From the NCBI GenBank assembly GCA_903813345.2, contig CAIIXF020000001.1:11408001-11472000 (forward strand): a stretch of DNA of 64,000 nt. The letters are read 5' to 3'. The position numbers and the translations under genes are program-made. The notes under the pieces were generated by a model. It ran no database searches. It had not been told where the DNA came from and worked only from the letters and a program-made list of their open reading frames with translations. Within the stretch, counting starts at the first letter, position 1, and each line of letters starts with the position of its first letter. This stretch comes from Owenia fusiformis. Taxonomy: Eukaryota. This document shows positions 11,426 to 29,324 of the stretch, in pieces.

Positions 11426-11679
11426 TCATTTCTTCTTAGTCTTTGCTATTTTTGCTTTTACAGCAGCATCATCAGCTCTCGTTTGTTTATCCTTTTTTGT
11501 TTTTGTATTTTTGCTTCCTTTTGTCTTTCCACCTGAATTACCTGAATTGTCTGTAGATTCAGGCGCGCTTGTGTTATTTGCGTCATTGTTAGTGTTGAAA
11601 TGAGTATTAAACTGGGACATCAGTTTTTCTTGCTTTTCTTCTACAAACTCTCGTCTGTTCCATAGTAAGATGTTGAAAC
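11426..11679 (-). CDS. DDB2: DDB2 terminal coding exon with basic low-complexity tail
   Basis: tttcag|GT; (G)FNILLWNRR matches the DDB2 C-terminal GYHILIW strand; phase fits the preceding exon; TGA at 11426-11428. Confidence 0.88.
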
Positions 11680-14600
11680 CTGAAATTATATTATTTGCAT
11701 AATTAAACAATATTATATAACTGTTATATGATACTATATTACTGAAAACTAGAAAATGACACCAAATATTTTAATTCCTTCATTCACAAAACCAACAATG
11801 TGAACAATGTGGTATACATGAAGGTTTACCTTATGAGAACTTCTCATAGCTTTTATCATTTTTTGTCATATTTTGGTGGTCATTTTTGATTTAGTTGCAA
11901 AAGTAGGTCAAATTACAAAAGTACATCATATTACAAATATGTCATAGATAAATAATACTCTAATACATCCCAAATAATACAATATGCGGATAACTCAGAA
12001 TAAGCACACCATGAAGGACATCCATTAAAACAATTTGCAAAATCTAGAGCCGAAAGCTGAAAGTCGCTTTACAATGTCAATACAAAGTCTGTGTAAAGAC
12101 TCTTTGGACACCCAGTATATATTATCACACCTATGACATCATAATCAGATACACTAAAATCCAAGTATTCTAAATAATCAACAGTAGTGGTTTAATCCAA
12201 AATGTATATAACAACATCATAGTACAGGGGACCAACTCAAACCTCAATTGTAACCTTTGCTACCTTACAGAGTTCATTCAAGCATCGTAGCACCACTTTT
12301 AAATTAGTCATTTTGACATAACCTTTAGGAAACTCATGGGAGGTAGGGACTTGGGCTTACGGCTAGGCTCGAAATTTTACTTACTTAGGCAAAAGTAATT
12401 TGACATGTTCCAAGTTGTCAGAGTCCTTGATGTCTAAATATGAAACTTGTCACTACTTCCTGATAGTAGACAGAGCTGTGGAACACATAATGAAGTTATT
12501 TTTTCTTTCTGATAGAATTTTTTTAAAAAGAATAGTGAGGTTAAAATTCTGACCAAGGTAATTGCTTTGGTTGCATTCAATATCGCTGCCTAAATTCAAC
12601 GATGAATGTTTAGATACAATAGGGGTATTGATTATTCTATTAGTATAGGCATTAAGTTAAAAATCTGGGTATTAATTTGGCTACAAACTGACAAAATATT
12701 AATGTTTTGGCTTATAAATTATCTGTGTATTAATAAGTGTGACTAGAGTAAGAATACATATACTATAGTATTTTGGTCTGTTTTGGTTAAATATAGCACA
12801 TCAGATGGTAAAAGGATTACAGTGGTACAGGAAAATACATTACATTCTAAACCAACTCAAACCAACGACACAAACATTCACAATCAAACCAACAAGCTGA
12901 TCTTCTCAAACAACAAAATCAACGACAGAATATACAGCACAACCTGAGAGCAAGATGAACCAGGAATTCAAGCATAATAATGGACCCTGGAACACAGATA
13001 CTTGTGCCACTTTGATACTTCCATGAGCAATGTTTAAGAAGTCTTCTGGATTATCATTTGATATAGGTACTGTATACAAAACACCCAGTTCATTTGTGTT
13101 AAAATATTAAAATTTTATATATATATATATATTATATCTTTTTTTGTACTGTAATTAAAGGTATGGAATATGATAAATTATTATTTCATATATGAAGATT
13201 ATGAATTGTCACTGAAAACATTTTTGTTAAATCCGAATCAATTTTTCTGTGTGTTGATCAATCAAACCTGAAGATTAAGGAGGCTATTAAGCAATAAAGG
13301 ACAAAAGTGAAATTTATTTGGAATATATATAATATTATACGCTCATATTCTAGATGCAAAACTTTGTAGATTCAACATGTCAGAAAAACATCAAATTACA
13401 AGAGGCCATACATTTTATTAACATGTTATCAAAAATATACAAATGTTTTACATCTTGAAACATGAATATATTTTTCAATAACATATATTGCACTGCAGTA
13501 TTTAATTGCTTATGTTTTAGGTTTGATTGACGCAAATGATGCATTTCATTAATTTACATTATCATATCTTCATTAATGTATATTATCAAATCTTCATTAT
13601 TAATTTACATTACCATACACATTTCCTCCTACATATGTTATTATCTTAATGCAGTTGGTCCTTTGATTGCTCATTTTTTTGGTTTTATGACGCAGAGAAT
13701 GATCTTCGTTAATTTATACTGTACACCTACACTTCCTCAAAAAATCAAAATAAGCTGTTTTTCATGAAATATACCATTATATATTTGGCTATGTCTGCCA
13801 TGTTCAGATAACTTCAGTACTCCACATGTGGTTGTATTGTATGTATTTAATATTATCAGGGTTGAAATATATGAAAATCATTCTAATTTGTAACACCCTC
13901 CCAAGGGACAAGCAAGTATACCCAATAAGGAGCATACAGGGCATAAATATCAAAATTAATATGCCAGAAGGGTCGGCCTCTCCAATTTGCATTCTCCAAA
14001 CATACTTAACTCTTCTTAATTCTCCTAAGAAGGAAGGAACTTAGTGGATGATGTCTGGAGTCCTGTGTTTGGAGGATGTCCAATTTGTATGATATCTCTC
14101 CCCACAGGAATATAAATACTCCCCCCCCCTTTTCCAAATCTTAGAAGTATTACCAGAGTTGGGGTGTACTAGTATTAAGAGGGGACATCTTATCTCATGT
14201 TTAATTCATTAAACACATATTATGATTTTGCAGGAAATAGCCAGGCTAAGTTTATAGTACTATGACACCACTAAAGAAAAGACAATTATTTACATTAATG
14301 CTATATACACAGACAAATATTTAGATAAGTAATCTTTAATGTCATGACAACAGTTAATATAAAGGCGTAAAAGTGAACATAAATAACATTCTCATAACAA
14401 GTGAATATAATATTCTATATTTGGCTTTACCCATCTCAATTCAACAAGGAGGGGTACAAAATATCATAGAACTCAATCAATTTATTGCATATACATGGTG
14501 ACCCAAAAAATGCAACCCCCATTATTTTTCTTATTAGAAGGTTGATTGCTTTGAAATTTGGCACACAATGACTTCATTCAATGTGGGATCCTCAGGCAAA

Positions 14601-17600
14601 GTTTTAATAATCAGTCTTAGTTTGATAGAGTTATGGTCGTTCCAAAATATGCTCCAACATTGAATGAAGTCTTTCAGAGCAATTAAGCTTCATTTAAAGA
14701 AAATATTGAAGAAAATGGAGGGTTGCATTTTAAAAGTTGATAAACAATTGTCGAAACCATATGTTCTTTAACATGTAGATTTCAAATATGACATCACTTT
14801 GTCAATGACTGAATTTTGAATATTTAATGACGCAAATCACAATTATTTCTACTCACAACTAGTATATAATGATAGTAAAAATAAATGAAAATGACTCATT
14901 TAAACACATCATGTAATATTATTTTGACTTATACGTAAGCAAAACAATAAATTTTGTAATCGTGACCAATTTTATAATATCATCAGAAATTACAATACAT
15001 AGAAACCTTTCAGTGCCAACAGCAGTCAGATGTCTGTACCTAACAATAACATTTTTGCAAATGAAATAATTCAATTCGCAAAATGCAGTTATTTATACGA
15101 GGGGTGATCAATAAGTAATGGACGCTTTTTTACACAGATACTTTTTATACATAAATACTCTAACTATAATGATGTCAATGTAAAATAAGGACTGGTGATC
15201 AATGTCACTACCTTTTGATGAATTAACTGTTATTTTACTTGATTCAGATTAATGAAACTGGAAGTTTTGAAGTCCTAAGTGCAAGGGCAGGTAAAGCATT
15301 CCTAGGTTTAAGAAGACTGCTTACAGGAAAGGTAAATATGGCAAAAATATGTTAAATGGTAAGTATAAAAATGCAAAAGTGCAAAATGCAAAAGTGCAAA
15401 TTTTTTCCATGTTTTAAACAAGTTAAAGCACTTGACTTATGGTTTAAATGAGCATTCCATGTTAGCATTTTCTCAAAATGGTATCTATTATCATCATACA
15501 TCTAAGTATCTTATATAATATTCCTGTATAATATCATAACCCTATGGTATCTTATGTTTTAACCATGTGGTATCTTATATCATGATATTGTGGTATCTTA
15601 TATTTTATCCCTGTGGTATCATGACATGTGGTATCTTATATTTTATCCCTGTGGTATCATGACATGTGGTATCTTATATTTTAACCTTGTGGTATCTTAT
15701 TTCATGACACTGTGGTATCTTATATTCTAACCATGTGGTATTTTATATCATGATAATGTGGTATCTTATATTTCTATCCTGTGGTATCATGACATGTGGT
15801 ATCTTATATTCTAACCCTGTGGTATCTTATTTCATGACACTGTGGTATCTTATATTTTATCCCTGTGGTATCATGACATGTGGTATCTTATATTTCTATC
15901 CTGTGGTAGGAAATCTTAATACCCTGTGGTAGGAGAAGATGGAGCCAAGGAGGAAGATGTGATTAAGGCTGAAGGAGAGCAGAAAGATATTGGTGCATAT
16001 GATGTTGTCGAGGAAATGCCTGAGATGTTATGCTTTTCATATGGGAATGCTGTTGAAAAGGACATTGGTATGAACATTGTTTGTATAAAGTAAAAGGAAT
16101 ACTCTTAGAAAACATATTCTTACACATCAATTTCTAATTTTTCCAGTTTCCTATGAGAGTTTTAACACCAAACTGGATTAGAAATAATTCAGTTCAAAAG
16201 TGGAGGTTATTCTTTAATCATTTTGAGTTTTCAAGTTCCCTCCACATAAACAACTTTTAATTCTAGGAAAATTTAGCAAAGAAGACCTTGCTAGATGTGT
16301 CCTATCGAACACCTGCTTTGACTTCATTCAGAGTGCTTGTTGTGCAGCAGAGTGAAAATTTAATGAACATATACTTCTGTGGCGGATTTACCAATCATGA
16401 ACTTTGTTGCTATGAAATGTCTAAGTTGTGCTGTTAACATGCTGTCTATGCAAATAAGGTACAGTAATATGTTTACAGGTTGATTTCAATGAAATGCACA
16501 TCTGCTTTATTGATAACTTGAATTCAATTTTGAATATGAATATGAACAGGTCAAATAATAACTTTATTTGCTTTGACGCAACAGATTATTATTAATGACC
16601 ATTTTCAAGACTTTAACCATTATGGCTTTAACTACAGATAACTTTGTCCAGCTTTTTCTAAGATTTTCCCAGAATACATGGTCTATATGATAAATTCTAC
16701 ATACATTGTGTGAAAATCAATAACGCAGATGCGAGTAAGTAGTTACCAGTTTCACCACCAGGTGGCTCATTCGGGCCAGATAACATGGCGGGTATAGGAG
16801 AAAGTTCCCTTCAACTTAACTTTAATTTCTTTCAGTGGTTCAATTTTCATATAACCCTTATGTATCTAATAGTTATGCAAATTAAAATATGTCCAGCAAA
16901 ATAAAATGTTATCTGTCCAATACAAGAAAAGATATTTCACATTTGGTGCTTTTGTAACATGGGGTCTATAGGGAATCAACCCGAGCTAGAAATCACATTT
17001 TCAAAAATCTTGAATTTTCAAAGTTGATTAACAATTTTCGGAATCATATTTCTAGCTGTTTTTTTTCATGTAGATTACAAATATGACATCACTTTGTCTG
17101 AATTTTGAATATTCAATGATGTAAAACAAGTTTATATCTACTCGCACCTAGTCTATTAGAAACAGTGATCTCCCCAGCATTTAAGTGTGTAGGCGCAACA
17201 CTCATCTAAAAATCTATTTGCACCCAATTGAAAAAAAATGAGAAAAATGAAAAATCAAGGCATATATTGGCCAATTTTGATCTGAATTGTGAAAATGAAA
17301 ATTTTGGAACCACTAAGGAAAAAATCCTAAGGAGGAGGCTGAGAAATGCAACATACATGTATATACACATATTTCTATTCATTTTTTTTTCTTGTTAATT
17401 GTGTCTGGTTTCTATGTATTTGTTTTGGTTGCTATCCATTTATAATATTATTATAAATATAACATATATAATATCAAAACAAATTTTGTAACAACCATTA
17501 ACAAAAATAATAAGTTTTTCTATTCATTATCTTTTACTGATTATTGTTTCTGATTTCTATGTGTTTGTTTTGGTTGCCACACTGACTAATATAATAACAT

Positions 17601-20600
17601 TTATATAATTTCAAACCATGAACATGATTTTCAACAGATGAAACAGCAAGGATTGGAACATCTAACAAGACATTAACAGGCAAAATGTCACCACCTGTCA
17701 TTTATTACAGACACCAAACACTAAACACCAGATGCTGAACAATGACCACCAAACACCAAACAACGACCACAAAAAGGTTGTGGTGGTGACATGAAAACTA
17801 AAACAAATTCTGTGCACATGATGAGGTGTTTGAATAAATATACAGGGTGTCCCGAAAGTATGGGCCCCCCTAGGCAGACATATACCAGTGTGGTCATAGT
17901 ATGTGTCATATATCATTTTAAAGCCTATCCAAAGTTACATTGATTCGCCAAGTATCATGGTTCAACTCTCAAATGTGAAAAAATTACAGGCATTTCAAAA
18001 TTTAGTGTTTGGTCAAAATTAAGTTCAATTTTACACCAAAACACTAGTCAATGTGTCCTCCCGGGCCATCTTAATAGCAGCAATTATTTTCAGGTCGGAT
18101 GGATATTGAGTGGGAAAAAGAGAACGGTGAGGGTAGATACTCTAAGGAAACTCTTCTAAAGTTCCTTAACAGGTTTTAAGAGGGTTATAAAATTCCACAC
18201 CCCTATTTCAAGGGCCTTTAAGGTCATATATGAAAATAATTGCTGCTGTGAACATGGCCAAGGGGGGACTCATTGACTAGTGATGTGGTGTAAAATTGAA
18301 CTTTATTTTGACAAAACACTAACTTTTAAAATGACTGTAACTTTTTCCCATTTGGGAGTTAAACCATGATACTTGGCAAATCAATGTAACTTTGGATAAG
18401 CTTTAAAATGATATATGACACATACTAGGAGGACACTGGAATATGTCTGCCTAGGGGGGGCCCCATACTTTCGAGACACCCTGTACATAATTCTGGCCAT
18501 AAAGTTTTCTCGAGAAAATGTTCAGAGGAGGGAAATTAGTGCAACAGATTTCGGATAGCCATATGTTGGATTTTGGCTATTCTCTGAGGATTTAAACGAA
18601 AAGCATGGGGTTGTGGGAAGATACTTAATGGAAAATACTCCAGGAGGTCAGGTTACTTAGTCAAGGGAGCCAAGCATATATTATCATCAATATTTTCATA
18701 GATCTCAGTCATCAGACACCAATCAAAAACAAGACATTAACATGTCACCACCTGTCATTTGTTACAGACACCAAATCCTGACCACCACGTGCTAAATGCC
18801 AAACACCAACCCCTGAACACTATCCACTAAAAAGTTGGAGACTTAAACAATACCTCTGTTGGTGACATAAAAATCATATTGTGAATAATATGGCAGACAG
18901 TGAATGAAACACAAACATTTTACTCACCCATTCCGCATGCCAAACTGTCTCCTTGATGGTTAAACTTTGTCAACTAAAAATAACAATATGACGACAATAT
19001 AGCACAGTAATACAGCATGAATACAGGTTTATTTTTCTTTAATCAGGCCAGGCAGCTTAACCCGACCCCCCCCCCCCTCCTGGCCTCAAATTCTCTCAAA
19101 ATCATACAATTTTCACAAATTCAGAGCAGTTTTTAAGTGATTTTGGGCCATAGTTGTCAAATGTGAACCCTCCTGGAACCCCCTTGGCAAAAGCTGGCTC
19201 TAGGACTGTCAATGAATTTATTTTCATAACCAATGATTGGAATTTGGAATAAACAACAATGTTGAAATGTGGCACACAACGATGTGATATATGTTTGAAC
19301 ATCATTAAGAATATTGCAATAATGTAAAATATTAAAAGAAGTATCTCAGATATTGTAGTGGAAAAAATGTTAATTGATTATTATGTTGGTCAGTTGATTT
19401 GTTGTATCCTAGAAAATCTCCAGTTAAAATGTTTCATGCAACATGTGGAATAATTGGCAATAGTATGACATACGAGTAATTCCATTCATATTGTACTTAC
19501 AGAAATAATACCAGGTGCTCCTGGGTCATGCAATTGGCATTTAACATCTCCTGTATCAGCATCAAATACATCGATGGTACGCTTCTCACCCTGTGTATAA
19601 CCTGGGAACTTGGGGTCAGGGTAGCGACCAACAATAATAAGGTCTTCTAGTGGATGCCACTGAGCCTAAAACAACAATATACAACCATGATATACAAGGA
19701 TCACTTTGGTAAAAATATGTCTCAGAATTTGGAAATTGAAATGTACATGATTGTATAAATCTGTGACAAAGAATAATCTGTTGCATGCATTATAAATGTA
19801 ATTTTATCTTGCCAAATTAACTTACATACATGTTTACTGTATCTCTTCTTTGCCAGTTCTCTCGAAATGTGAACCAAATTCAAAATCTCTAAAATCTCAA
19901 ATTCTCTAAAATCTCACAATAACTATATTTAATACCTTAATTGGGGTGATATGTCTAAATGCCCTGTGAGGGTGGCTAATGGTTGTTCCAAGGGTCCAAC
20001 TAGGACCCCCATACACTCGGAGCTCATCATGTTGATCCGTACACAAAAGCCTCTTGCCATCTGTAGGACTAAAGTATGCTAAAAGAATAAGCAAAGTTAC
20101 CTTTATAGGTGTGATATGCTGGAAGCCTCTATGAGGGTGTTGTATATTGGTTTCTAGGTGCCACTCAGGGGATCTGTATACTCTAATGTCACTGTACTGG
20201 TCTGTAGTTAGTAACCTTGTACCATCAGATACACTGAAATATGCTGTCATAAACAAAATACTTAATGATCACCTGTAAACTGGATCTAATTTCACATCAG
20301 GGCACTTCTAAATCTATATCAAATCATCAATTTACTTTTGTAAAAGAACGCTTTTCGCAGCTCAATTTCAATCATTTTTTGAAAAAGGCAGGTCTTCACA
20401 AAATGGTTACTTGAAATAGCACACAAGAACATACCGATCAGCCTCAAGACAAATGATCACCTCAACTCATCACTGTATTGGGATGACCTGTTCTCAAACT
20501 ATTTGATGGGATACACTTACCAGAATTGACTCCCTTGCTGTGAGGAAGAACTTTGAGTACTGATGACCTATCTTTCACCATTCTGAGGTCCCACAGCTGA

Positions 20601-23528
20601 ACAGTTTGGTCCATAGAGGCAGTACATAGCAACCAGTCCTCTCTTGGGCTGAACTCTACATGGGTTACCTTGTTCTTATGAAGTCTTGACTGCCAGATCT
20701 TCAATAGGATAATGCGAGATATTAATGTTCATATTGTGCAATTCACAGTATCAGACTTAATAGAAGATAGAACTGGAAACTACCCTTGAATCAATGGTCA
20801 CTGAACCTCTAAAAATGCATTTCAAAACCACTGGATATAGCCTGAGGTACACAAGTACAAAAGGTATCTTTGCAGAAATGGTCATGCTTATAAATTAAAA
20901 ATTCTGTATCATTATGTGACCTTAGACGGAATGTGTTTAACTGGTGAAATCATTTATTTAGAGATATACTGTACTCCAACTAATATTTGACACTATTATA
21001 TTTCGCGTTTTTGGCATTTTGAAATTTCGCGGCGATCATATTTCGCTAATTTACAGTTTTTTAAAATTTCGTGGGTATTAATCTCCACGGATTTGTCATA
21101 CAGGATCACTCTTTCGACTTTGATATCAGCCATGGTAGTCCTTCACCCATTGATTTTGGCTTCTTATAAAGCCTTTTCGTTAGAATGTTCGTTTTAATAC
21201 AGTAATAACGATCTCTCTTTTAATTTCTCTTTTACAAAACTCAAAATGTCACGTTTTTACCTATTATCACCCAGCACTGGACGAAAATATTGTCAACATT
21301 GAAATCTCTGGGAATTTCCTTGGAATTATGCAACTATCAAATTTCAAATATAGTACCGCGTGACAATTACCGGGAGTACAGTAATTGATTTACCTTTTTG
21401 CCCTGAGTATTCATAAGAGTGACATTCCCTTTGTTATCGCCAGCAGATAGCACCTTCCTCTGTGAGTTTACATCCACTCCACAGAACCAATGGCTGCAAC
21501 ACAGAAACAATACAAAAAGATTATTACTTCGCTAACTTACATCAGTATTCCAGATTAGAGACCAGCATGTTAATGTCTAAATTATATCATAGACCAGTTG
21601 CATTACTATTTCCAAATAGGCGTACCTCATCAAATGAATAGATAATTGATAGTTTAACCTCATATGAAAAGTAAATAAAAAATGACATAATTTAAAAGCG
21701 CTAAAGCAGCCAAGCGCCGTTGAACTCACTCAAGGTCCATGGTATCAAGGAACACTTTGTTTTGTACACCCTCAAAATCATGTAGCTCTATCTTCCCATC
21801 TATGGATGCTGTCAGCAAGCACTTTGGGTCATCAGGCCAGAACTTCATGGCTTGAATAGATCCCCCTGGACCTTTCTAGAATGTACCATAGAAGAATTTT
21901 TGAATTTTGTGATTACTGGCTCAGATGGACAACATTTGAAAAAATTACTAATGTTTTAGCAATGGTATATATACAAATTATTAATGTTTTAGCAATGGTA
22001 TATATACAAGGCATTAACATGCAAAATGTCCCACCGTATGCCACCTACCGAATACCATCCACAAAAAAGTTGGAGACTACACTATGACATAAAAATGAAA
22101 ATCATTTTTATTTGTGAGCATATTAAGACTTTTTGTACTGTATACTAGCTACTGTATACTAACTAGAGGTGTCACGGTCCAAAAGAATTTGATTCAGTAT
22201 GGAACGGTACAAATGGTCTCGGGACACCATACTTTCGGGACGGGGCAGGACATTAAAGAAAAATTATGCAATGTCTGATGATGGCAGTTTCAATTTTTCG
22301 ACATCATATTCAGAATTAAAATCGAATGTAAAGCATCTGCGATGTGATCGGCATTTCACATAATCAGCACGGTGTACTATCACCAATTCGTTTACCTTGT
22401 GATATCAGAGTCCCAAAAAACTTCCAAACTGCCGACTTTTTCGGCTAGGATGCCGGCTCAATTTTTCAATTTCTTTTCTACATCCAGCATATTAAACCTT
22501 TCTGTCCCATGTCCCGAACCGAAGCATCTGGTCCCAAATTCAGTCTAATATCGGGAAACCGTGACATCTCTAATACTAACCCCTTGAACAAATGTGTCCT
22601 GGTTGAGTTCATTGACATTCCATAGTATAATGTCACCACCTTTGGACCCTACAGCCAGCATGCTAGGATTGTTCGGGTGCCACTCTAGAGCAGTCACACG
22701 CCTGTCAAAAGGACTAGCTGTCCGATACAACTGCATGTCAGTCACGAGTTGAACTATGGAAGATTTTGCACTCTGGAATGAGAAGAAGGTAACTGAACAG
22801 TGAGAATGATTTCAGAAAAAGTGCAAGATCTCTCTAGACATGTTTGCTTTTGGTTTTGATGAAGAAAGTATATTTACCAGTTAACTGTTTTAAGCCAGAG
22901 CCTGACTTTTGGTTAGTATTCTTTGCAATTTGTTTTATATTGATATTGATAAGTCTACATGATTCTAAACTCAATGTCAAAAATATAAAGGAGTGCACCA
23001 ATTATTAACAGGTATCATGCTTCTTGAGTCGATAACGACTTTCCACATGACATTCTTTTATGATGCAGCTGTATGATCAGATAAACAAAATACCTTTTTT
23101 AAATTGTTGAATTTTCCACCATGACCCATTCTGTTTGCGAATAAGTGCTGTATCACACTGTTGCAGCTTGCCTGGTATCTGGGGCTTGGTGTCGAGCATG
23201 TGAACTGGTAGGTTGACTTTCTGGGATGCAAGGAACATGGAAACACAAGGTTGGATCCATGAGTGTTAATATCTAATGGTGACAGCGTACTGCCAGTGCT
23301 AGTAGATGCATCTGTGTCTGCATGCGATGGTTTTGTTACACATGATGTATTGTCATTTGTGATTGTCAAATTAGAGTTTTGATCCTTAGCTATTTGCCGT
23401 TTTCTCTTAGGTGGAGCTGAGGCCTTTAAAGAAGGGCTTTCTACATCTACATTTCTTTTTCGCCTGCTCGCACGGGTAGGTACTGATGGAACTGGAGTAT
23501 TTTTGTCAGATGTTTTGCCTTTGGCCAT
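11426..23528 (-). CDS. DDB2: DNA damage-binding protein 2 (DDB2/XPE), complete spliced CDS ~552 aa
   Basis: Exons 23528-23094, 22772-22581, 21875-21730, 21493-21394, 20698-20521, [20243-20101 or 20078-19936], 19665-19501, 18973-18928, 11679-11426. All GT-AG, frame-consistent (1659 nt). Motifs [26 protein letters not shown] (DWD box), [32 protein letters not shown] match DDB2. Confidence 0.96.
15540..15930. repeat. Composite minisatellite, core TGTGGTATC, ~15-23 bp units
   Basis: Repeated tgtggtatcttatattttatccc / tgtggtatcatgaca units. Confidence 0.92.
17665..17800 (+). repeat. Short dispersed repeat family (6 copies), possibly HINE/Helentron-associated
   Basis: CAAG(G/A)CATTAACATGCAAAATGTCACC end, ATGTCACCACC/GGTGGTGACAT sub-terminal IR; other copies ~18728-18875, ~22005-22097 (+) and ~40316-40452, ~46708-46874, ~51565-51708 (-). 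Confidence 0.75.
17843..18483. mobile_element. Tc1/mariner-type MITE with long TIRs
   Basis: TA|CAGGGTGTCCCGAAAGTATGGG ... CCCATACTTTCGAGACACCCTG|TA; inverted similarity extends ~250 bp. Confidence 0.9.
18928..18973 (-). CDS. DDB2: DDB2 exon, 46 nt
   Basis: ttttag|TTG...G|gtgagt; [15 protein letters not shown](G). Confidence 0.93.
19044..19208. mobile_element. Degenerate CAGGCC-family MITE
   Basis: CAGGCC...GGCTCTAGGACTG termini, flanks TTAAT/TCAAT; related to 48238-48408. Confidence 0.55.
19501..19665 (-). CDS. DDB2: DDB2 exon, 165 nt
   Basis: ttttag|GCT...TCT|gtaagt; [39 protein letters not shown]... Confidence 0.95.
19936..20078 (-). CDS. DDB2: DDB2 alternative exon B, 143 nt (variant FRH hairpin)
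   Basis: tcttttag|CA...AAG|gtatta; [48 protein letters not shown]; same length and phase as exon A. Confidence 0.88.
20101..20243 (-). CDS. DDB2: DDB2 alternative exon A, 143 nt (canonical FQH hairpin)
   Basis: atgacag|CA...AAG|gtaact; [48 protein letters not shown]. Confidence 0.93.
20521..20698 (-). CDS. DDB2: DDB2 exon, 178 nt (DWD/WDxR box)
   Basis: attgaag|ATC...G|gtaagt; [39 protein letters not shown]... Confidence 0.94.
20969..21381. mobile_element. MITE with TA TSD in DDB2 intron
   Basis: TA|CTGTACTCC ... GGAGTACAG|TA; internal TTTCGC repeats. Confidence 0.7.
21394..21493 (-). CDS. DDB2: DDB2 exon, 100 nt
   Basis: ttgcag|C...AAG|gtaaat; [33 protein letters not shown]. Confidence 0.94.
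21730..21875 (-). CDS. DDB2: DDB2 exon, 146 nt
   Basis: ttctag|AAA...GA|gtgagt; [36 protein letters not shown]... Confidence 0.94.
22164..22572. mobile_element. hAT-like MITE with 8-bp TSD ATACTAAC
   Basis: TIRs TAGAGGTGTCACGG / CCGTGACATCTCTA; ATACTAAC at 22156-22163 and 22573-22580. Confidence 0.9.
22581..22772 (-). CDS. DDB2: DDB2 exon, 192 nt
   Basis: ttccag|AGT...GGG|gttagt; [52 protein letters not shown]... Confidence 0.95.
23094..23528 (-). CDS. DDB2: DDB2 first identified coding exon (disordered N-terminus plus DDB1-binding helix)
   Basis: ATG at 23528 (MAKGKTS...); basic clusters [23 protein letters not shown] resembles the DDB2 H-box; donor AAG|gtattt. Acceptor ttttcag at 23572-23573 implies an upstream exon, so an N-terminal extension cannot be excluded. 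Confidence 0.8.
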
Positions 23529-24197
23529 TTCGATTAAGCTGTAGGTATTGAGTTGATTCTGCAAGCCTGTTCTGAAAATAATAAAGTAATCATTTCATTA
23601 TCATGATCAAGGTCTATTGAATTTTGGATTCTATTTTTCTGATTTATTCAAAGCTGTAATACACGATCATAGTGACTTATTTTCAAAATTTAAATAGTTT
23701 ATCCCACAGTTGGCTAATTTGTTCATACATGCAAATTCCCAATTGGGCTTTCTTGTGTTTAACTGCGCAAAGAATTTGATGCATAGTCTCTTATTCAATG
23801 GATAGACTCATTCTCAAAATTCATTTCGTTCGTTGCGTACCTTCACTACCTAAGGCACAGGAGGCACGGATTGCACTGGACAAAAGGCTCGGAGATTGGG
23901 ATAGACTCTCATTTGCATCACAAGCTAAAGAGATGGACAAGTGTCATCTCAGCGAGAATTTTGCATGACAAAAACAGCGACCATTTTGGGTCATTTTCAC
24001 TGATGTCAGCCTTTTTAAAATCCATCTTTTAAGATGTTAAGACCTCTTGTCTTTTTTTTAATTTAATTTCTTATAATTTCGAGTGATGGGATACTATAAG
24101 ACTCTAGTAATACAGCTGTGCAAGTTCAAGTCACCAAAATAAATAAAACTTTATTGTTTTGAATTCCTGTTTCCAATCCTGGTACTGGTAGTTTATC

Positions 24198-25934: not shown

Positions 25935-28900
25935 GTGGTAGTTCTTGGTTTTATTGACCTCTTTTTCTGTGATCATGGAAACCACTTACCTTCAACAGAG
26001 TCATACACACAGTTGATGCAACTGCGACGTTTCCATAAGATTGTTGGCTCTCGTGGAATCCTTCACAAGAAATCTTCCACACCACTGCTCTTCCTATGTC
26101 TTATTCTAAGTGGTGACATCCACCCAAACCCAGGTCCTGTTAAATTTCCCTGCGGTATGTGCCACAAAGCAGTTGCCAAGAATCATCGCGCCCTTGAATG
26201 CGATGAATGTGGCACATGGGTACACATCAAATGTGGCAATGTTTCCCCTGCTGAGTACAATGTTTTTCTTGACGCGGGCAGTTTCACCTGGATCTGTCCT
26301 GGATGTGCCCTACCTAATTTTTCCAACAGCTTCTTCAATGACTCCACTCTTTCTCATTCCTCGGTAACAAACTCCTTCAGCGCTCTCTCTGATCTTGACA
26401 ATTCGTCATCATCATCTGATTCTACCGAATCAGAACCACCGAGGCTGACTGCACGAAAGAGGCGAAACCAGGTTCGCCTCATGTCTATCAACTTCCGCAG
26501 TCTAATTAGTCATGAGAAGCAACTACACCTTCAACAACTAATTGAAACTCACAAGCCAGATGTCATCATAGGCTGTGAGACTCACCTGGACAACACCATC
26601 GACAGCAAATGGATATTTGGTCAAGACTACCTTAGCCCACCTCCACACAGGAAAGACCGAAAGAAAGGTGCTGGCGGTGTCCTTATCGCAGTCAAAAGTG
26701 ACTTCATATCAGTCGAATATGAAGCGACAGCTGATTGCGAAATCATATGGTCCAAAGCATCTCTATCAAATGGGGACATACTGTTTGGATCCTTCTATCG
26801 TCAACCAAACAACGATACTGGTGCTTTGGACTCGCTCCAAACATCCCTCGATAAACTTTATGCTAATGGTAATACACATATGAAAAACATCTTCCTATGT
26901 GGTGACTTCAACTTACCAGACATCGATTGGGAGAAAGGAACTATAAGGCCTAATTCTCAATATTCTAATGATCTTAATGAGAAGATGATTACAATAACTG
27001 ATGATCATGGCCTAACCCAACTAGTCAAGGAACCAACTAGACAAAATAACATCCTTGACTTAGTATTCACTACATGCCCAAACCTCGCAGAAAGAATCTC
27101 GGTGGTTCCGGGCATGAGTGATCACGAGGCAGTCCTATGTGATATAAACCTAAAAATGAAAATTCAGAAAAAGAAGCCTCGTAAGGTCCACATATACAAG
27201 CGGGCAGAATGGACTGGACTTAAAGAGACTCTACGATCTAAGTTCAGCGAATTCAAAGAGAACTGTGAAAGTAGATCAGTTGAAGACAACTGGTCCTCCT
27301 TCAAATCTACATTAATATCGTCAATCAATGAGCATATTCCAAGTAAAACTCTAAGCGGGAAATTCAAAGTACCCTGGATTACCACCAGGATACTGAGAAT
27401 GATCCGACAGAAACAAAGACGATATAATGTTGCCAAACGTTCAAATGAACCTCATCATTGGCATAAATACAAATCACTACGGAAATTAATCCATAGTGAA
27501 ATTCGTAAAGAACATCAGCGCTACATCAACGATCTGCTTGACATTGATGAAAGCGAAATCATAAATGAGAATGTTCAGCACAAAGGCATTACCAAACGCT
27601 TCTGGAGCTACATAAAGTCTAAACGCAAAGATGCATCAGGTATCAGCGTGCTGCGTAACAAAGATGGCGACGAAATAACAGACGCCGCCCAGAAAGCAAA
27701 CATCCTCAATGACCAATACAATTCTGTATTCACAGATGAGGATGCCACTCTACCGACAATGGTACCTAGTCAAATTCCTGAAATGCCAAATATCAAAATT
27801 TCGACAAAAGGAATTCACAAATTGCTAACTGGCCTAAATCCATCAAAAGCCACTGGACCCGATCTTATTCCGACTAGGGTCCTGAAGGAATGCAGTGACA
27901 GCATATCACCATTCCTTCAAATAATTTTTCAACAGTCTATCGATGAAGGCTTAGTGCCTATGGACTGGAAACATGCCAATGTTACTGCTATCTACAAAAA
28001 GGGACGAAGAGATGAGGCTGTGAATTACAGGCCTGTATCTCTGACGTCAGTACCATGTAAAATAATGGAACATATTATATTCCATCATGTTATGGCCCAC
28101 TTTGACCTCTATGAAATTCTAGTAAAATTCCAACATGGATTCAGGTCAAAACACTCATGTGAAACACAACTTGTCAATACAATAGAGAATATAGCTCGGG
28201 CCCTCGACAACAATAAACAAACAGACATGTTGGTATTAGACTTTTCCAAAGCGTTTGACACGGTGGCTCACGAACGCCTCTTGCTCAAACTCGACTATTA
28301 TGGAATTCGCAATAATAACTTGAACTGGTTCAGATCCTGGCTTGTGGGAAGATCACAACAGGTAGTGCTCGATGGTGAATCAAGTTCAAAAACTCCAGTA
28401 AAATCAGGAGTTCCTCAAGGAACAGTTCTTGGACCACTCTGTTTCCTTGTTTATATCAATGATATGGGCAATAACCTATCATCCTCAGCCAGTCTTAAGC
28501 TTTTTGCCGACGACAGCCTTTTATTCATGACAGTCGAAAGCAAGCAAGATGCATTAACACTACAGGAGAATCTTGATAAACTGGTCTCCTGGGCATCAAC
28601 ATGGCAAATGAAATTCCATCCATCAAAATGCTATGTGCTAAATATTCACAAAGGTAAATCCCCTATCATGCACAATTACACCATGCTAGGGGAAAACCTT
28701 AAGTCGGTAACACACATCCCATACCTAGGAATTGACATCACAAATAACTTACGCTGGACTACACATATTCAAACTATTGTATCCAAAGCCAATAAGGTGC
28801 TTGGATTTCTCAGGCGCAACCTCCATCAATGCCCTGAAAAAGTGAAGGCTCAGGCATATAAGTCACTAGTCCGGCCTAATTTAGAGTATGCCAGCTCGGC

Positions 28901-29324
28901 ATGGGATCCGTACCGACAAAAAGATATTGATATGTTGGAACAGGTACAGAGAAGAGCAGCCAGGTTTGTAACCAAATGTCACTCAAGGGAACCAGGCTGC
29001 GTCACCAAAGCTCTTCAAGACCTACAGTGGGAGCCACTGAAGGAGCGTCGAGAGGCTGCTAGAGTTTTCCTTTTCTACAAAGGAAAGCAGAACCTAGCAG
29101 CCATCGACGTGCCTCCATACTTCCGCCAACAGATCAATACCAACACTAGGTTGTATCATCCTTCTAAGTTCATACAACCATCAACTAGAACGGATGCATA
29201 CAAATTTAGCTATTTCCCTAGGACAATAACTAAATGGAACACTCTACCTGGTGACATCTTAGACTGTGATAGTCTAAGTAGTTTTAAATCATCATACTAT
29301 GCCTATGTCAATAACTGCAATTAA
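25935..29324 (+). CDS. LINE polyprotein: 2A-like motif, PHD finger, APE endonuclease, reverse transcriptase
   Basis: GDIHPNPGP; C-x2-C...C-x2-C...H-x2-C...C-x2-C PHD finger; APE motifs GCETHL, GDFNLP, SDHEAV; RT motifs QHGFR, LDFSKAFD, GVPQG, LFADD, YLGI; first in-frame ATG at 26016. Confidence 0.95.
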   Translation: MVVLGFIDLFFCDHGNHLPSTESYTQLMQLRRFHKIVGSRGILHKKSSTPLLFLCLILSGDIHPNPGPVKFPCGMCHKAVAKNHRALECDECGTWVHIKCGNVSPAEYNVFLDAGSFTWICPGCALPNFSNSFFNDSTLSHSSVTNSFSALSDLDNSSSSSDSTESEPPRLTARKRRNQVRLMSINFRSLISHEKQLHLQQLIETHKPDVIIGCETHLDNTIDSKWIFGQDYLSPPPHRKDRKKGAGGVLIAVKSDFISVEYEATADCEIIWSKASLSNGDILFGSFYRQPNNDTGALDSLQTSLDKLYANGNTHMKNIFLCGDFNLPDIDWEKGTIRPNSQYSNDLNEKMITITDDHGLTQLVKEPTRQNNILDLVFTTCPNLAERISVVPGMSDHEAVLCDINLKMKIQKKKPRKVHIYKRAEWTGLKETLRSKFSEFKENCESRSVEDNWSSFKSTLISSINEHIPSKTLSGKFKVPWITTRILRMIRQKQRRYNVAKRSNEPHHWHKYKSLRKLIHSEIRKEHQRYINDLLDIDESEIINENVQHKGITKRFWSYIKSKRKDASGISVLRNKDGDEITDAAQKANILNDQYNSVFTDEDATLPTMVPSQIPEMPNIKISTKGIHKLLTGLNPSKATGPDLIPTRVLKECSDSISPFLQIIFQQSIDEGLVPMDWKHANVTAIYKKGRRDEAVNYRPVSLTSVPCKIMEHIIFHHVMAHFDLYEILVKFQHGFRSKHSCETQLVNTIENIARALDNNKQTDMLVLDFSKAFDTVAHERLLLKLDYYGIRNNNLNWFRSWLVGRSQQVVLDGESSSKTPVKSGVPQGTVLGPLCFLVYINDMGNNLSSSASLKLFADDSLLFMTVESKQDALTLQENLDKLVSWASTWQMKFHPSKCYVLNIHKGKSPIMHNYTMLGENLKSVTHIPYLGIDITNNLRWTTHIQTIVSKANKVLGFLRRNLHQCPEKVKAQAYKSLVRPNLEYASSAWDPYRQKDIDMLEQVQRRAARFVTKCHSREPGCVTKALQDLQWEPLKERREAARVFLFYKGKQNLAAIDVPPYFRQQINTNTRLYHPSKFIQPSTRTDAYKFSYFPRTITKWNTLPGDILDCDSLSSFKSSYYAYVNNCN

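Follow-up and report, generated by a model that had tools for sequence, protein, structure and literature searches.

Exons 2 and 3 of alpha-tropomyosin are mutually exclusive exons that are kept apart by the close spacing of their splice signals. For OGDH exons 4a and 4b, which are separated by a short intervening intron, exclusivity is described as enforced by distant branch points (PMC7969005). In this study we analysed a window of 64,000 nucleotides of genomic DNA from Owenia fusiformis (assembly GCA_903813345.2, contig CAIIXF020000001.1, positions 11,408,001 to 11,472,000 of the forward strand), which carries the gene of DDB2, the small subunit of the DNA damage sensor UV-DDB, and focused on two tandem copies, herein referred to as exon A and exon B, of the DDB2 exon that encodes the loop inserted into damaged DNA. 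In common with the known mutually exclusive tandem exons, A and B are adjacent homologous exons of like length and phase, one of which would be taken into each mRNA, and the donor of the first would lie too near the branch site and acceptor of the second. The Owenia pair differs from those of tropomyosin and OGDH in its extreme spacing of 22 nucleotides and in that the donor GTAAC of A itself holds the only TAAC branch-like motif before B.

To our knowledge, studies of UV-DDB have in every organism assumed one sensor whose Phe-Gln-His (FQH) wedge does not vary. Conservation of the FQH hairpin is noted in three papers (PMC3938054, PMC8629891, PMC7555853); F334, Q335 and H336 are reported to bind two orphan bases (PMC12606344), and Gln372 and His373 to insert into the duplex and contact the complementary AA, thereby replacing the flipped-out lesion (PMC4264169). 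The Owenia protein belongs to the same family as the vertebrate DDB2 proteins of known structure (PDB 4A08, 3EI1, 6R8Y and 9J8W), and the loop HPHRxFQHxTPIK is encoded by the corresponding exon. Unlike vertebrate DDB2, for which the comparison rests on the proteins, Owenia carries the wedge exon in two alternative copies, the second with Arg at the position of Gln335. That tandem duplication gave rise to mutually exclusive exons A and B, used about equally and yielding two full-length DDB2 proteins, is as a whole quite likely, and its splicing part, the choice of A or B in each mRNA, is very likely. One gene supplying two versions of the wedge at comparable levels would be a natural experiment on the wedge-tip residue. 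The elements of the pair and its flanking exons, all on the minus strand, are as follows.

20521 to 20698, minus strand: exon 5, constitutive, upstream of the pair; ends in phase 1 (...TCTG), donor CTG/GTAAGT.
20101 to 20243, minus strand: alternative exon A, 143 nucleotides, encoding the greater part of a WD40 blade and the wedge loop; contained in CAH1773006.1.
20116 to 20124, minus strand: FQH codons TTC CAG CAT of exon A, aligned to human F334-Q335-H336.
20079 to 20100, minus strand: spacer of 22 nucleotides, GTAACTTTGCTTATTCTTTTAG, with the donor of A, the only TAAC branch-like motif, a pyrimidine tract and the acceptor AG of B.
19936 to 20078, minus strand: alternative exon B, 143 nucleotides, encoding the corresponding blade plus the wedge loop; contained in CAH1773007.1.
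19951 to 19959, minus strand: FRH codons TTT AGA CAT of exon B, read from the sequence.
19501 to 19665, minus strand: exon 7, constitutive, downstream, with one acceptor for A and B alike (RNA junctions, translation).

By homology the gene in the window is DDB2 of Owenia fusiformis. Each of the two exon peptides matches DDB2 chains only in PDB (E about 1e-11 for A and 1e-11 to 1e-9 for B), as does the full-length A isoform, CAH1773006.1 (E 8e-117 to 2.5e-114). A search of proteins with exon B returned a single match, the 552-residue Owenia fusiformis record named DNA damage-binding protein 2 in UniProt (CAH1773007.1), which carries exon B without exon A.

Exons A and B have the same length, enter in phase 1 and leave in phase 0, and each is preceded by its own acceptor AG (20245-20244 for A and 20080-20079 for B) and followed by its own donor (AAG/GTAACT for A and AAG/GTATTA for B), with only 22 nucleotides (20100-20079) between the end of A and the start of B. 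Each consists of 47 whole codons without stop or indel. The two peptides are identical at 30 of 47 residues (BLASTP E 4e-23), or at 31 of 48 if the shared split Ala codon is included, a resemblance far above the chance level. At the base level 84 of 143 positions are identical, and 20 of the 30 conserved residues are encoded by codons that differ synonymously; by the Nei-Gojobori method the synonymous difference (pS) exceeds 1, i.e. is saturated, at a non-synonymous divergence (dN) of 0.30. The middle codon of the wedge, CAG in A and AGA in B, is changed at all three bases. Across 163 distinct wedge-exon peptides from outside Owenia, a conservation of at least 90% is reached in 19 columns, and the consensus residue is retained at all 19 in A and at 18 of 19 in B. 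The coordinates, lengths, phases, identity counts and codon differences of the original prediction, made from the sequence alone, were all reproduced on re-computation. Its two central claims at this level also held: the exons are a duplicated DDB2 pair, as shown by their homology, like length and phase, and exclusive match to DDB2 in PDB, and both copies are under constraint, as indicated by saturated dS, a dN of 0.30 and retention of at least 18 of the 19 conserved columns in each.

The duplication had also been called old. Saturation of synonymous sites fits an old event, but no date could be obtained, since a peptide tree (41 rows, 47 columns) built for dating was not resolved and neither supported nor rejected a clade of A plus B (p-AU 0.47). 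At column 39 both Owenia copies carry Gly or Ala, which is found in none of the 163 other peptides (the residue there is Gln, Phe or His in DDB2 elsewhere); this sharing hints that the exon was duplicated in the line leading to Owenia, or that the copies have exchanged sequence. A search of longer proteins for exon B gave Owenia's own protein as the only candidate (1 of 1), which would be weak evidence that B-like exons are lacking elsewhere, given that the search needs shared words of five residues.

A single-base difference within exon A was noted in passing. At window position 20152, the third base of exon A codon 30, the window has T and the RNA reads described below have G in 21 of 21, 30 of 30 and 24 of 24 cases, as do the DNA-like contigs; on the coding strand GAA becomes GAC, or Glu becomes Asp, in a column that is variable among orthologues. 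The window allele was unseen in these runs.

The use of both exons was examined with three raw stranded RNA-seq runs carrying the Owenia label and mapped to 18600-23700; a fourth run, guessed to be RNA, behaved as DNA (contigs extend across introns, e.g. 20227-20995) and is uninformative on splicing. Reads on the strand of the gene join the end of A to exon 7 (20101 to 19665) in 16, 19 and 14 cases in the three runs (total 49), and join the end of B to the same acceptor (19936 to 19665) in 17, 18 and 7 cases (total 42, and 91 for A plus B), while the five constitutive DDB2 junctions gave 17-28, 14-33 and 11-32 reads per run. The depth was 16.4, 27.0 and 19.7 over A and 12.4, 17.1 and 8.2 over B, as compared with 30.0, 39.1 and 34.7 over exon 5 and 36.3, 40.8 and 25.6 over exon 7; relative to exon 5, the level was 0.55-0.69 for A and 0.24-0.44 for B. 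The summed depth of A and B (28.8, 44.1 and 27.9) is close to that of one constitutive exon, and thus fits mutual exclusivity and not the inclusion of both. In the public proteins, CAH1773006.1 (partial) with A and CAH1773007.1 with B, exon 5 is joined straight to A or to B and neither protein holds both exons; otherwise the two differ only at their N-terminal ends, where CAH1773006.1 reads 15 residues upstream of the start Met. Since these proteins join the exons directly and the depth in the intron bin 20310-20480 is zero in all three runs, exon 5 can be linked to A or to B. The gene models of the Owenia genome project are described as based on RNA-seq evidence through STAR, StringTie, Trinity, Mikado and PASA.

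These data bear on the idea that only one exon is genuine, with the second in decay or splicing noise, rarely spliced in or giving unstable mRNA. An impression of this kind could arise from the databases: the two protein records fall into one cluster at 90% identity, of which the representative and UniProt entry carries the FRH exon B, and a search with exon A found no Owenia match because of this clustering, so that database users see only the non-canonical FRH wedge. With 49 reads across the junction of A and 42 across that of B, with open frames, intact splice sites, saturated dS and a dN of 0.30 for both, and with at least 18 of the 19 highly conserved residues kept in both, this explanation is very improbable. 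The claim that both exons are spliced into mRNA is accordingly borne out by the reads joining exon 7, and the possibility that B is never spliced in, named beforehand as what would overturn the claim, is contradicted by the 42 junction reads of B and by the public reference protein, which uses B. Among the four junctions proposed as a check, 20101 to 19665 and 19936 to 19665 were seen, but the two starting from 20521 were not among the joints listed.

The same depths speak to another arrangement, in which A, spacer and B are read as one 308-nucleotide exon with 55 extra residues, or about one more blade. The spacer is stop-free and keeps the frame, giving an open frame of 120 amino acids (19906-20268), so that co-occurrence of A and B could be encoded, which counts against strict exclusivity; a run of seven stop-free codons is, for its part, unremarkable. 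Reads join 20101 to 19665 past B in about half of the junctions, A and B each reach 0.24-0.69 of the depth of exon 5 and not about 1, the spacer has a consensus donor followed by a pyrimidine tract and AG, and no exon 308 nucleotides long is represented in either public protein. We regard a joint exon as hardly credible, and return to the choice between A and B.

Exclusivity most likely follows from the anatomy of the exons, as far as the sequence can tell. Animal spliceosomes are not known to excise introns as short as 22 nucleotides, and the spacer would be too short for removal. Ahead of B there is a single branch-like motif of the TAAC type, the A of which lies at 20097, 19 nucleotides upstream of B and within the donor of A; further matches to the branch consensus are CTTAT, 10 nucleotides from B, and CTCAT, inside exon A at 54 nucleotides upstream. 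As the donor GTAAC of A overlaps the sole motif of the TAAC type, commitment to this donor would block the acceptor of B, and vice versa. Each exon, at 143 nucleotides, exceeds a multiple of 3 by two, so that an mRNA with both exons skipped, or with both spliced in, would be out of frame. The Owenia pair would then represent a very compact case of exclusive splicing.

Competing RNA pairing was considered as a selector between the exons. A search for repeats found nine short inverted pairs in 19450-20750, among them a perfect complement of 11 nucleotides between exon A (20139-20149) and 19675-19685; it would pair exon A with the pyrimidine and branch stretch directly ahead of exon 7, and would loop out exon B. 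Dinucleotide shuffling gave on average 0.385 such 11-mers against the one observed, and 26.5% of the shuffles reached the observed count, indicating that the complement is within chance, and this candidate was set aside as unsupported.

The two isoforms differ at 17 of 47 residues, within one WD40 blade and the loop that is inserted into damaged DNA. In the PDB search the FQH of exon A aligns to human F334-Q335-H336; the corresponding tripeptide of exon B is FRH, and the canonical wedge is thus found in A and is absent from B. The single departure of B from the 19 conserved columns is column 41, the wedge Gln itself (Q in 95% and R in 2% of the 163 peptides), which justifies the attention given to the wedge in the original prediction. 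Also notable is column 12, where B has Cys in place of Thr (T in 84%); the remaining 15 of the 17 differences are confined to variable columns.

Structural models agree with two foldable proteins. The AlphaFold2 (AF2) models assign to the exon four strands of a single blade together with the wedge loop (residues 367-413 of CAH1773006.1 and 352-398 of CAH1773007.1), with a like strand pattern and with mean predicted local distance difference test (pLDDT) values, in blocks of ten residues over the exon, of 90-97 for A and 87-96 for B. The model of the B isoform shows helices at 116-156 followed by strands, and Foldseek matches it to zebrafish DDB2 (4a08_B; E 7e-45, TMt 0.94), with WD40 proteins other than DDB2 following at E about 1e-18, in keeping with a seven-bladed WD40 propeller with N-terminal helices, as in solved DDB2. 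Both isoforms probably function as UV-DDB sensors. The replacement of Gln by Arg, at the residue in contact with the orphan bases, may alter how the protein holds DNA, for instance its affinity, its residence time or the bases that it prefers opposite the lesion; this we put forward tentatively, from the position of the residue. With an Arg wedge, for example, the preferred orphan bases might differ from the AA that faces a TT dimer.

Wedge variants were counted in 231 collected DDB2-like proteins; the collection is redundant, contains isoforms and reflects the searches that produced it. The tripeptide is FQH in 206, FRH in 6, YQH in 6, FRY in 1 (Elysia chlorotica) and of another kind in 12. 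The six FRH proteins are Owenia B, three isoforms of the spider Uloborus diversus, and one protein each of the scallops Argopecten irradians and Pecten maximus; a second record of Pecten maximus likewise has FRH, and FQH is found in the related scallops Mizuhopecten and Ylistrum. As read from these sequences, Arg at the wedge tip is rare but recurrent and is tolerated in natural DDB2. FRH is the only form in the listed records of Uloborus, Pecten and Argopecten, whereas Owenia makes both FRH and FQH from one gene.

A different kind of variation was observed in Patella vulgata, which has a second, shorter DDB2-like protein (368 amino acids), encoded on one 87.4-Mb record together with the first and bearing the wedge F-E-D (HPHRFFEDVTPIK). 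It could reflect diversification by duplication of the gene rather than of an exon.

RefSeq predicts pairs of DDB2 isoforms with matching or almost matching lengths in Mya arenaria, Crassostrea virginica, Ostrea edulis, Mizuhopecten yessoensis, Ptychodera flava and Lineus longissimus. In the bivalves and the hemichordate the members of a pair differ at 23-24 residues within one block of about 47-50 residues, and X1 and X2 of Lineus longissimus (585 and 584 residues) differ in that block too. The block corresponds to exon 3 of Owenia and not to the wedge exon, which is identical between those isoforms. A second copy of exon 3 was looked for in the Owenia window by tblastn with six alternative blocks, and only 21875-21735 was found. 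A tree of the block unites the oyster and scallop proteins of one isoform type in a supported clade (98/94), apart from the other type, and the pair therefore predates the oyster-scallop split. By manual count on an alignment to human DDB2, with the numbering verified against the PDB alignment of exon A, the oyster block extends from one residue before the equivalent of G154 to the equivalent of I200, with A or S at the position of human A155 and H or Y at that of I200. Contact with the cyclobutane pyrimidine dimer (CPD) is reported for G154, A155, G156, I200, N201 and W203 (PMC12606344). Exon 3 of Owenia itself (GKGPGGS...DTMDLDHWFC), set against the block consensus (GIGAGG...WYC), keeps the Gly pair and the Trp.

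The bivalve, nemertean and hemichordate pairs, from three further phyla and known from predicted proteins, are like the Owenia pair in that within one family a homologous block is substituted on the face that binds damaged DNA. It is conceivable, though doubtful at present, that the damage-recognition face of DDB2 is in marine invertebrates a modular surface selectable by splicing, giving two sensors per gene tuned to different lesions or contexts. Owenia would then swap the wedge that reads the orphan bases, and the others a block that maps, in the oyster, onto the pocket for the flipped-out photoproduct. A link to the UV exposure of the transparent planktonic larvae is possible as a speculation.

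Several points weigh against the reading of the pair as mutually exclusive exons that give two distinct sensors. The three RNA runs are a single-study source with stage and tissue unstated; the share of A among the junction reads was 0.48, 0.51 and 0.67 (Fisher p 0.22 between runs), so that A and B stand at about 1:1 without significant difference between runs, which gives no sign of regulation and no support to the switching by splicing put forward in the original prediction; and the upstream junctions 20521/20243 and 20521/20078 are not among the 15 of 116 joints listed. Among the 120 listed of 435 protein matches no named annelid besides Owenia is found. The AF2 alignments of the two isoforms share orthologues, so that the models show compatibility with the fold and cannot discriminate the isoforms. 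Finally, FRH in the DDB2 of other species would also fit near-equivalence of Q and R at this position.

Alternatively, the exclusive pair is real but both proteins would be equivalent in damage recognition, the duplication having become fixed and each copy being kept only as the source of about half of the mRNA, with the change of Q to R and the 16 other substitutions either neutral or affecting stability, modification or the hand-over to XPC. The A:B ratio without significant shift, the location of 15 of the 17 differences in variable columns, the FRH wedge carried by every DDB2 record listed for Uloborus, Pecten and Argopecten, and the likeness of the predicted folds are all in line with such equivalence. 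On the other side stand the presence of Gln in 95% of the 163 peptides, with its loss as the sole departure of B in the conserved columns, the direct contact of the wedge residue with the orphan bases, and the pairs of other invertebrates, among which the oyster block on lesion-contacting positions suggests that this surface was repeatedly diversified. We consider equivalence a serious possibility, at somewhat less than even chance. The pair translates into a testable human mutant, DDB2 Q335R, and into a comparison of the native isoforms.

The original prediction knew of no description of such a system. This stands for the literature, where no paper describing alternative wedge or pocket exons of DDB2 was found among listings and abstracts (supplementary exon catalogues could still hold such events), but not for the public annotation, which already holds both isoforms; the system is unannounced in the literature, yet both proteins are in public records.

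As mapped by tblastn and exact translation, the DDB2 coding region extends from 23528 to 11426 on the minus strand and comprises nine exon positions, the sixth being filled by A or B. The spliced exons of the window give the exact translation of residues 1-453 of CAH1773007.1, and the last two exons were placed separately. The features other than those listed above are the following.

11426 to 23528, minus strand: DDB2 coding region (tblastn of CAH1773007.1 on the window, RNA junctions, exact translation).
23094 to 23528, minus strand: exon 1, with ATG at 23528 (tblastn, translation; junction 22772/23094 with 17, 14 and 11 reads in the three runs).
22581 to 22772, minus strand: exon 2 (RNA junctions 22772/23094 and 21875/22581).
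21730 to 21875, minus strand: exon 3 (RNA), homologous to the block that varies between DDB2 isoforms of bivalves, nemertean and hemichordate.
21394 to 21493, minus strand: exon 4 (RNA junctions 21493/21730 and 20698/21394).
18928 to 18973, minus strand: exon 8, 46 nucleotides (junction 18973/19501 with 28, 22 and 21 reads; end set by exact translation).
11426 to 11679, minus strand: last coding exon, including the stop codon (exact translation).

Two intronic stretches, 18742-18775 and 22006-22079, show very high depth of RNA and contigs, with many 'go back' joints between them and loose ends; they are taken as members of a dispersed repeat family, the reads of which come from elsewhere and lie outside the DDB2 mRNA. 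Adjoining DDB2, an open frame of 1129 residues is located at 25935-29324 on the plus strand in a block of higher G+C, and by eye its product resembles the endonuclease and reverse transcriptase of a non-LTR (long terminal repeat) retrotransposon.

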